Positions 57,550-62,579 of a stretch of 64,000 nt of DNA are shown piece by piece. A program made the position numbers and the translations under genes. Every line of letters starts with the position of its first letter. Within the stretch, counting starts at the first letter, position 1. Below the pieces are notes generated by a model. It saw only the letters and a program-made list of their open reading frames with translations. It did not search any database and was not told where the DNA came from. The DNA comes from Candidatus Binatia bacterium (GTDB lineage: Bacteria > Desulfobacterota > Binatia > Bin18). The stretch covers positions 2,720,001-2,784,000 of the forward strand of contig OY761159.2 of assembly GCA_963664395.2 (NCBI GenBank). The letters run 5' to 3'.

Positions 57550-58266
57550 TCACTGCTCGGTGCCGCCGCCGGGGTGGAGGGTACCGTTTTTTCCCGTCTG
57601 CGAGCCTATCCACACCTCGCCTCCCTCGTACAGTTCTTTCTTCCAGATCGGGACCGTTTCCTTGAGCTGATTGATCGCGTAATGACACGCCTCAAACGCG
57701 GCGTGGCGGTGACTGGAAGACACGGCTATGGCCACACTGGCCTGTCCAATATCGACCCGGCCGAGCCGATGTATCATGGCGACTTTTTTCACCGGCCAGC
57801 GCTCCAGGACCTCGTGTCCAATCTTGCCCATCTCTTTCTCTGCCATGCCGGGATAACACTCGTATTCCAGCCGGATGACCCGCCGACCGTCATTGCTGTC
57901 TCGGGTCGTACCGACAAAGGTTGCCATGGCGCCCGCACCGGGGTCGGCCACAAAGGCGGTCAACTCGTCCAGGCGAATCGGGTCCTGGGTGAGCGTACAG
58001 GACAGACGACTGTCTGCCCCAACGCCCCCACTCACGGGTGGGATAAAGGCCAGCTCATCGTTATCGTGCAGGGGATGATCGCCATCGACGTATTCCTGGG
58101 CGACGGCAAAGGCGAGCGAACGCTCAACTTCTGCTAGCGCCGGCTGCTCGTGTTTGAGCGCCTCCCAGACCGTCCTGACCGTTGCGCCTTCAGGCACTTC
58201 ACGGCTGTCTTCACTGCGGCCCAGCCGCTCTCGGAGCGAAGCAAAAAAGCGTAACCTAATGTGCAT
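57550..58266 (-). CDS. moaX: fused molybdopterin synthase MoaD-MoaE (MoaX-like)
   Basis: FFASLRE...FIPPVSGG (MoaD), then GAMATFVGTTR, HRLG, HRHAAF, PIWKKE (MoaE). Confidence 0.92.
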   Translation of the reverse strand: MHIRLRFFASLRERLGRSEDSREVPEGATVRTVWEALKHEQPALAEVERSLAFAVAQEYVDGDHPLHDNDELAFIPPVSGGVGADSRLSCTLTQDPIRLDELTAFVADPGAGAMATFVGTTRDSNDGRRVIRLEYECYPGMAEKEMGKIGHEVLERWPVKKVAMIHRLGRVDIGQASVAIAVSSSHRHAAFEACHYAINQLKETVPIWKKELYEGGEVWIGSQTGKNGTLHPGGGTEQ

Positions 58267-58774
58267 GGCGTTCCCCCCGGAGCAGGAACATCATATGGCC
58301 GAGCTCGGGCAGGACGAGTTTGGTCATGCCCAGTTCGACCGCGCCGGTTGAGCCGGGCAAGGAAATAATGACCTTGCCGTTCGCAACCCCCGCGGTGGCG
58401 CGGGTCAACATGGCCGAAGCGCCAATATCTGCGTAACTCAGCATACGGAACATCTCGCCAAAGCCGCTGATTTCTTTTTCGAGCAGGCTCTGGATCGCCT
58501 CGAACGTCGTATCGCGCGGCGCAATACCGGTCCCGCCATTGGTGATAATGGCGTCAACCTCGGGCTGGGCCAGGAGGGCCTGCACCACCGTCGTAATCTG
58601 CTCCGGTTCGTCTTTAAGAATCTGATACGAGACAACCGGCTGACCCTGCTCGGCCAGGAGTTCTTTGATGCGTCTGCCGCTCGTATCCGTCTCTTCGGTG
58701 CGGGTGTCGCTCAGGGTGATAATTGCGCACCGAACCGTTCGGTGGGCTTTGCCTTTATGCTCTGTCACAGCCAT
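58256..58774 (-). CDS. moaB: molybdenum cofactor biosynthesis protein MoaB/MogA
   Basis: ITLSDTR..DTSG, NGGTGIAPRDTT, GFGEMFR, LPGSTGAV. Confidence 0.92.
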   Translation of the reverse strand: MAVTEHKGKAHRTVRCAIITLSDTRTEETDTSGRRIKELLAEQGQPVVSYQILKDEPEQITTVVQALLAQPEVDAIITNGGTGIAPRDTTFEAIQSLLEKEISGFGEMFRMLSYADIGASAMLTRATAGVANGKVIISLPGSTGAVELGMTKLVLPELGHMMFLLRGERHAH

Positions 58775-62119: not shown

Positions 62120-62473
62120 CTAATCCAGCAACTCCAGCACCTTTTCAGACGGCCGGGCGATAACTGCCTTTTGATCCTTGATTATAACCGGGCGTTGCAT
62201 CAGCTCAGGATGCCGGAGTAAGACCTCGACCACGGCTTCGCGCGTCACATAGTCGTCCGCGTTCAGACCGAGTTCCTTGAATTTTTTGTCCTTACGGACC
62301 AGTTCCGCGGGTTCATCCGGCAACAGGTCCAGAAAATGTTCAAAGTCTCCTCTGCTGAGGGGGTTCTTGAGATACTCAATCACGTCGAACTCGACGTCGC
62401 GCTCCTGTAAAATATCGAGCGCTCCGCGTGACTTGCCTCAACCGGGATTGTGATACACAGCCAGCTTTGCCAT
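62120..62473 (-). CDS. arsC: ArsC-family (glutaredoxin-type arsenate reductase-like) selenoprotein, Sec at codon 12
   Basis: AAGGAGG RBS, ATG 62473: MAKLAVYHNPG-TGA-GKSRGALDILQERDVEFDVIEYLK...LMQRPVI..VIARP. The TGA aligns with the catalytic Cys of HNPxCSxSR. Confidence 0.85.
62399..62422 (-). promoter_or_regulatory. candidate bacterial SECIS hairpin
   Basis: mRNA GCGCUC-GAUAUUUUACAG-GAGCGC, stem starting 15 nt after the UGA, loop starting with G. Confidence 0.6.
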
Positions 62474-62579
62474 AGCGTCAACCTCCTTCATACTCGTCGC
62501 GCTTGCCAGCTTACCGAGTTGGAGAGCGGACGGCTAGACCGGATTGGCAACGGACCCGACAGCCGGCTACAATTCTCGT

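Follow-up and report, generated by a model that had tools for sequence, protein, structure and literature searches.

The window analysed here is a 64,000-nt stretch of a Candidatus Binatia bacterium genome (GCA_963664395.2, contig OY761159.2, positions 2,720,001 to 2,784,000), and it carries on its minus strand at 62120..62473 an arsC gene of 117 codons and a stop, the twelfth codon of which is UGA. The gene very probably encodes a 117-residue glutaredoxin-type (R773-type) arsenate reductase, ArsC, in which selenocysteine (Sec) replaces the nucleophile Cys12, and the conservation of the codon indicates that the UGA is almost certainly decoded as Sec by SelB and Sec-tRNA-Sec. The gene is a further member of a selenoprotein family catalogued since 2005. 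The new point is an apparent SelB-type hairpin, conserved and covarying, which lies 46 nt from the UGA behind another hairpin. The decoding signal is probably a two-hairpin element, in which the invariant distal hairpin (H2) would bind SelB and the variable proximal hairpin (H1) would act as a looped-out spacer.

In a plain listing of open reading frames (ORFs), the gene is represented only by a GTG-started fragment of 87 amino acids at 62120..62383 on the minus strand, an artefact of the UGA being taken as a stop. A sequence-only reading of the window had noticed this and had proposed that a strong ribosome-binding site (RBS) and an ATG at 62473 open a 117-residue frame across the TGA; sequence and translation (with TGA as U) bear out both statements. 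On the minus strand, a Shine-Dalgarno AGGAGG (62482..62487) stands 8 nt ahead of the start ATG (62473-62471), and the frame runs through MAKLAVYHNPG, the TGA of codon 12 (62438..62440) and GKSRGALDILQERDVEFDV, remaining open until the stop at 62120. The GGAGG upstream of the start is conserved among the orthologues of the same genus. The forecast that standard annotation will miss the gene holds for plain ORF callers, which truncate it, but the family is a listed one, so family-aware annotation need not miss it.

The UGA is conserved as a codon. When 40 related genomes were searched with stops read through, 23 of the 24 further species in the genus gave an orthologue of 76-93% identity, and every match had a single in-frame TGA (24 matches from 23 genomes, one genome holding two); the 24th genus genome, which is 65% complete, gave no match. 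TGA was also present in one order-level relative (71%) and one class-level relative (57%), and four class-level relatives (54-73%) had no stop and carried TGT or TGC at codon 12. Among 89 unique homologous genes, which came from 110 fetched loci including 80 further named loci, codon 12 was TGA in 53 (Sec-type) and TGC or TGT in 36 (Cys-type). Wherever it occurred in the extracted genes the TGA fell at codon 12, within the conserved context YHNPx-[U/C]-G[KQ]SR, and the flanks on both sides of it were conserved as protein; the RBS, the ATG and the 11 codons before the TGA were kept as protein across genera and phyla. On a quick tree of 86 unique proteins, weakly resolved, with support lacking for 46 of 83 inner branches, at least six switches between Sec and Cys were needed, two of them forced by well-supported branches. 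A conserved in-frame TGA whose place is taken by Cys codons in other homologues is the classical Sec/Cys signature, and for this reason the UGA is interpreted as Sec. Alignment with Cys homologues was a check named by the sequence-only reading, and its outcome agrees with the proposal; the contrary picture that it had drawn, of close relatives with a Cys codon and local decay of this copy, was not found, the TGA being kept in nearly the whole genus.

Two irregularities were observed in the records of the relatives. The same arsC stood twice in relative G001 (OX638322.1, C1 86036-86386 and 5139999-5140349; L056 and L054), near both ends of a single 5.18-Mb contig, which looks like the untrimmed overlap of a circular assembly and not a true duplication. 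Three records of metagenome-assembled genomes (MAGs; L071, L072 and L115) were titled "uncultured Enterobacteriaceae bacterium" with an arsC 76-85% identical to the Binatia gene, and one member of the genus was titled Thermodesulfobacteriota; these labels look unreliable.

The genome has the machinery for Sec insertion. In the host genome (5.04 Mb, 95.9% complete), a tRNA-Sec (66.7 bits; ARAGORN anticodon TCA) was found together with the adjoining selA (526 bits), selB (390 bits) and selD (316 bits), all above curated cut-offs, as had been assumed when the organism was said to have SelABCD. At least 12 further selenoprotein genes were detected by a TGA scan followed by Pfam. From 10,764 TGA sites, 372 passed a coding-potential filter and 42 of these had a Cys within four residues; 20 of the 42 were checked by Pfam, and as these are 20 of 372 candidates, 12 is a lower bound. 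Among the 20, 11 belonged to a fitting family, L146 matched no family and is a paralogue of two GrdB-like genes, L157 was two adjacent genes in one frame, and seven had no match.

The protein was identified by profile and structural comparison as a member of the ArsC family, as the sequence-only reading had proposed. Pfam ArsC (PF03960) matched residues 7-114 with 52.5 bits against a gathering cut-off of 24 (E 6e-14), and the best matches among solved structures were arsenate reductases. Residues 1-116 aligned colinearly with residues 1-116 of R773 ArsC (PDB 1jzw/1i9d, E about 4e-18), with U12 falling on the catalytic Cys12 of YHNPaCGtSR and R60, R94 and R107 coinciding with the same-numbered arginines. 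The HX3CX3R motif and the triad of Arg60, Arg94 and Arg107 have been described as the features that separate classical ArsC from YffB (PMC3169414). The motif is present here with Sec for Cys, as H8-N-P-G-U12-G-K-S-R16 (H8-x3-U12-x3-R16). In 61 colinear unique homologues, drawn from 87 after 26 were removed by a motif-position filter, R16, R60, R94 and R107 were invariant and H8 was present in 60. Assignment to the Spx/MgsR or YffB family was considered and rejected, as TIGR01617 scored 55.7 against a cut-off of 75.05, the Spx models were far below their cut-offs, and the Arg triad was present.

The first hairpin after the UGA, H1 (62399..62422, minus strand; +19..+42), consists of GCGCUC (62422-62417), the 12-nt loop GAUAUUUUACAG and GAGCGC (62404-62399). 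The stem contains five G-C pairs and one U-A pair and begins 15 nt past the UGA, placing the loop 21 nt from it. The sequence-only reading had given the 6-bp stem, the 12-nt loop starting with G and the distance of 15 nt past the UGA, and all three were found in the sequence. With a simple-hairpin energy of -9.4 kcal/mol, and with a 66-nt stretch around it folding at z = -2.21 (6 of 200 shuffles folded at least as well), H1 is a real hairpin, modestly better than chance on energy. Folding energy was discarded as support for H1, because the mean minimum free energy (MFE) of +10..+54 was -17.1 for the 53 unique genes of Sec type and -16.5 for the 36 of Cys type, alike in both and so uninformative. 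The proposal that the downstream hairpin is the selenocysteine insertion sequence (SECIS) thus stood in part: the hairpin exists as described, but as far as comparative sequence data go the conserved SelB-type element is probably not H1 but H2 at +44..+59.

H2 (62382..62397, minus strand; +44..+59, loop 62388-62391) starts 1 nt past H1 and has the sequence ACGUCG[AGUU]CGACGU, a 6-bp stem with a 4-nt loop, which encodes D-V-E-F-D-V. In a fixed-column helix search it was the only helix kept in at least 80% of the Sec-type rows, and RNAalifold returned H2 alone. Most of the Sec-ArsC genes, from Binatia, Acidimicrobiia, gammaproteobacterial and other MAGs, were grouped as class A; in 79 distinct class A rows 99.6% of the H2 cells were paired, a figure that is partly circular, since class A was delimited partly by H2. 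The non-circular figure is that the H2 criterion was satisfied by 81 of 100 unique Sec-type segments and by 4 of 36 Cys-type ones. Pair 45-58 was C-G in 64 of the 79 rows, U-A in 14 and unpaired in one; pair 46-57 was G-C in 66, G-U in nine, A-U in three and unpaired in one; and pair 44-59 was G-U, A-U or G-C in class A. Two-sided changes were found at two H2 pairs. G-U pairs were confined to the sense strand, and their abundance suits a sense-strand RNA, not a DNA palindrome. In the 36 Cys-type rows 86.1% of the H2 cells paired, with covariation not above that of shuffles. One class A gene, L178, has its loop changed from AGUU to CGUG and the residues EF to AC, with the stem and the N-G-U-N pattern kept. 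In L091, a Cys-type gene placed within a clade of Sec genes at 99% branch support, the 45-58 pair is gone; this is a single anecdote.

Synonymous sites pointed to the same hairpin. Measured as the share of residue-identical pairs that differ in codon, the synonymous difference in class A (54 colinear genes out of 81) reached its minimum in the 4-codon window from codon 26, at 0.034 against a background of 0.555, with 0.00 at codons 27-29. The codons of H1 (18-23) varied at 0.37-0.76, close to the background. In an earlier and smaller set, made up of 36 of the 53 unique genes with Sec and 27 of the 36 with Cys, the Sec-type picture was the same as in class A and codons 27-30 of the Cys-type genes gave 0.10, 0.29, 0.01 and 0.28.

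The hairpins of the other selenoprotein genes in the genome also resembled H2. In 10 of the 12 other genes, the lowest-energy hairpin with a G in the loop lay 17-21 nt from the UGA; in L147 it lay at 13 nt, or at 17 nt in a different register, and in the peroxiredoxin (Prx)-like gene at 58 nt, the next one there being CCUGC[AGUU]GCAGG at 16 nt. Their loops are GUC, GUU, GGU, CGUGA, CGUGG, AGUCU, AGUU, GGC and the like. The AGUU loop of H2 is identical to that in the Prx-like gene, and the H1 loop is unlike all 12; the other SECIS loops of the genome are thus of the kind of H2 and not of H1, which points to H2. A genome-wide scan for H2-like hairpins after an in-frame TGA gave 17 matches, of which arsC alone was in a credible coding frame, so H2 is not a sequence motif common to the selenoprotein genes of this genome.

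A second group of Sec-ArsC genes showed the reverse pattern and served as a control. When all genomes were scanned for the pattern Y-H-N-P-x-TGA-x-x-S-R, at least 80 loci were returned, among those listed 69 ArsC-like genes and 11 chance matches; class B, from Acidimicrobiia with the context NPH-U-...NALAVAEE, is among the matches listed. In class B the invariant hairpin is CCUURGC[GGUC]GCYGAGG, at a distance of 23 nt from the UGA, and +44..+59 shows no conservation. The synonymous minimum in class B (16 of 16 genes) was in the 4-codon window from codon 18, at 0.058 against a background of 0.484, with codons 27-30 at 0.31-0.75; this minimum sits on the canonical hairpin and includes a compensatory change of UUG/GCC to UUA/GCU. 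The constraint thus marks the canonical hairpin in class B and H2 in class A. Three further genes have layouts that fit the idea of H1 as a spacer. In L232 a 7-codon insertion adds 21 nt, which are folded inside the spacer hairpin, and AACAUCG[AGUU]CGAUGUU follows 1 nt past it, 67 nt from the UGA; in L198 the spacer hairpin is followed directly by GCUCCAC[AGGUC]GUGGAGU, 52 nt from the UGA; and in L164, which has no H2, GCGCUGC[AGUU]GCUGCGC stands at the canonical distance of 22 nt.

H2 is taken as the SelB-type element because of its positional conservation, its covariation, the synonymous constraint, the reciprocity of class B and the likeness of its loop. In the proposed mechanism, H2 with its loop A-G-U-U would be the SelB-binding core of the SECIS, and H1 would loop out 24 nt as a structured spacer. 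With H1 looped out, the path from the UGA to H2 would comprise 15 + 1 unpaired nt and a 6-bp stem, near the usual ribosome distance. For most Sec-ArsC genes, those of class A, the use of such a bipartite SECIS behind a spacer hairpin appears rather more plausible than not: 46 nt would separate the UGA from the SelB hairpin, with single genes at 52 nt and 67 nt, and the spacer hairpin would absorb insertions. The median MFE of +4..+43 was -14.9 in class A, -10.8 in the Cys-type genes and -12.4 in shuffled sequences, the rows being related so that p-values overstate the difference.

Concerning function, the selenolate of Sec12 would probably attack arsenate held by R60, R94 and R107, the Se-As(V) adduct would be resolved by glutathione and glutaredoxin, and arsenite would leave through the single ACR3 pump, as judged from the residues present and the gene content. 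Arsenate reduction is the most likely activity because the Arg triad is intact and the genome offers a sole R773-type ArsC, an ACR3 and a glutathione synthetase. Searches of the 95.9% complete genome gave no R773-type ArsC besides this gene, and none of the pI258 type at E <= 0.001. One ACR3 arsenite pump (373 bits) and the glutathione synthetase gene gshB (406 bits) are present.

Several points weigh against a two-hairpin signal with H2 as its core. In the bacterial SECIS (bSECIS) model as set out in PMC13188914, the loop has 3-9 nt and the upper stem 4-16 bp; a G stands among the first two loop bases, as a rule with G or U next; the distance from UGA to loop is 16-37 nt and the MFE is at most -7.5 kcal/mol. 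At 46 nt from the UGA, H2 is outside this spacing, and its simple-hairpin energy of -7.0 kcal/mol in the window falls narrowly short of the threshold. The covariation may rest on few independent events, given related sequences and a tree of low resolution, and the U-A state at 45-58 is found mainly in one group. The codons of H2 (V-E-F-D) end in G or C, as a GC-rich genome prefers, the four Cys-type genes mentioned above also carry H2, and the number of unpaired exterior bases between UGA and H2 (median 7 for class A and 8 for the Cys-type genes, with 6 after shuffling) does not discriminate. The most direct competitor is that H1 is the functional SECIS of the standard model, with H2 kept by protein constraint on the beta-2 strand, by mRNA stability or by ribosome pausing. 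H1 fits the rules on spacing and on a G in the loop, lying 21 nt from the UGA with a 6-bp stem and a loop that opens with G; hairpins at its position are commoner in Sec-type (27/41) than in Cys-type genes (7/36) when loops of up to 14 nt are allowed; and class B and L164 carry a SECIS-like hairpin there. Its 12-nt loop, however, exceeds the 3-9 nt of the model and continues with A instead of G/U, so that neither H1 nor H2 agrees with the full bSECIS consensus (loop, G position, spacing and MFE), as is the case for a subset of selenoprotein genes according to PMC13188914. The register of H1 shifts between clades, with 72.8% of the cells paired in the register of the sequence-only reading in 79 class A rows, its codons vary near the background, and its loop differs from those of the 12 other genes. 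By itself, protein constraint does not account for the covariation of the third base of codon 26 with the first base of codon 31 in H2. We therefore regard H1 as the functional SECIS as unlikely and prefer the two-hairpin signal.

Two further explanations concern the codon and the substrate. That the TGA is a true stop, in a decaying gene or in front of an 87-residue truncated protein, or encodes another residue under a variant code, agrees with the plain ORF finder, which lists the fragment alone, but is extremely improbable. The 87-residue product would be without the entire HNPxUxxSR active site, the RBS, the ATG and the 11 codons ahead of the TGA are conserved as described, the TGA stands in 53 of the 89 unique genes with Cys codons as its only replacement in the others, and dedicated Sec machinery is present in a genome where a Pfam domain spans the in-frame TGA in 9 of the 12 other selenoprotein genes. 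It is rather doubtful, though less remote, that this selenoprotein with an ArsC fold has a different substrate, either another oxyanion or a thiol/selenol redox partner. Some observations favour this and count against arsenate reduction. With C used for U, the score for TIGR00014, the equivalog of glutaredoxin-type arsenate reductase, was 105.1 bits against a cut-off of 106.05, or 0.95 bit under it, in a full-length match spanning 2-114 of 114. The arsC gene is solitary, with a divergent M20 peptidase gene upstream and a convergent MiaB-type radical-SAM gene downstream; ACR3 lies 1.4 Mb away, and neither gene is in an ars operon. The functions of most such predicted selenoproteins are described as uncharacterised (PMC13188914). 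In contrast, the HX3[C/U]X3R motif and the Arg60/94/107 triad are invariant here and are lacking in the YffB-type relatives that do not act on arsenate, and the sole R773-type ArsC is accompanied by ACR3 and gshB and by no pI258-type enzyme at E <= 0.001, so that arsenate reduction is preferred.

Other features of the genome were also recorded. The tRNA-Sec gene and selA are on opposite strands with about 450 nt between them (G000:C1 2573200-2574840), ~147 kb from the window, and selB and selD are located elsewhere. SelD forms the C-terminal half of a 755-residue protein whose N-terminal half is Pyr_redox_2 (G000:C1 4506180-4508447; L018:1390-3657, minus strand), and this fusion ORF has no in-frame stop. 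The 12 other selenoprotein genes are one DsbA-like, five CMD/AhpD-like (CxxU), one AhpC/Prx-like (WUPYC), two of the UGSC family and three GrdB-like (UPxC), one of the last being without a Pfam match. Their loci (L143-L153 and L156, all on G000:C1) are 422867-424216, 550285-550911, 1127970-1128566, 1853420-1854229, 2616090-2617244, 3753672-3754619, 3805986-3806528, 2437368-2438096, 2067031-2067624, 1752070-1752681, 984585-985163 and 2428967-2429626. The selenoproteome of this genome lacks formate dehydrogenase, the commonest bacterial selenoprotein: none of the 11 PF00384 molybdopterin-oxidoreductase matches (L132-L142) has an internal stop. Within the window, a ThiS/MoaD-like domain is joined to MoaE in one ORF at 57550-58266 (minus strand), a fused molybdopterin synthase, next to which comes a MoCF_biosynth (MogA/MoaB-like) gene at 58256-58765. 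The ACR3 gene has an MgtE-type transporter gene as one neighbour; on its other side come a response regulator gene and, beyond that, one for a phosphate-selective porin.

If the two-hairpin reading is true, bacterial SelB can work across a structured spacer, and gene finders based on the SECIS would mis-assign or miss such elements. The hairpin just past a UGA would then not necessarily be the SECIS, and within one family the Sec-decoding hairpin would take one of two places, the canonical one or one some 25 nt more distant behind a spacer hairpin. Synonymous-site constraint marks the relevant hairpin in each class, and the comparison of the two placements offers a direct and cheap test of the reach of bacterial SelB and of the structure that it can span. 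With this gene the Candidatus Binatia lineage, one genome of which has 13 or more selenoprotein genes, joins a family known since 2005 from prediction alone.

Among known systems, a close one is R773 ArsC of an E. coli plasmid (PDB 1i9d, 1jzw and mutant entries), which shares the HNPxCxxSR motif and Arg60/94/107. It has 141 residues and Cys12, whereas the protein here has 117 residues and Sec, is without the C-terminal extension and is encoded outside an ars operon. The chemistry of R773 ArsC is coupled to glutathione/glutaredoxin, and the same coupling would be expected for the Binatia protein. The Sec arsenate reductase family itself (COG1393/TIGR00014; Zhang, Fomenko and Gladyshev 2005, PMC1088965) was described, with the motif UxxS and 14 sequences, among 15 new selenoprotein families of the Sargasso Sea metagenome, and has the same fold and U-x-x-S at Cys12. 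Its Cys homologues are widespread, and it was a bioinformatic prediction only; the Binatia member is likewise known from sequence. A 2026 review (PMC13188914) lists Sec arsenate reductase under TIGR00014 with a GenBank accession and describes the functions as largely uncharacterised, and the statement of the sequence-only reading that Sec-containing ArsC-like proteins had been predicted from metagenomes and were little studied accords with these two sources taken together. The Binatia gene differs from the 2005 listing by its lineage, and Binatia are not mentioned in the available text of two selenoproteome papers of 2026 (the review PMC13188914 and the BSepDB paper); the two-hairpin arrangement may already stand in the 2005 figures (PMC1088965). 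With respect to the bSECIS consensus of the E. coli fdhF type, the stem and loop of H2 agree, the second loop base being G and the third U, or G in four variants, but the spacing differs, being 16-37 nt in the consensus, 16-21 nt in the 12 other genes of this genome and 46 nt in H2, where a variable hairpin fills the gap. The class B Sec-ArsC genes belong to the same family, have Sec at the same position and, as in the Binatia gene, show one invariant and constrained G-loop hairpin; theirs lies at the canonical 23 nt, where the Binatia gene has H1.

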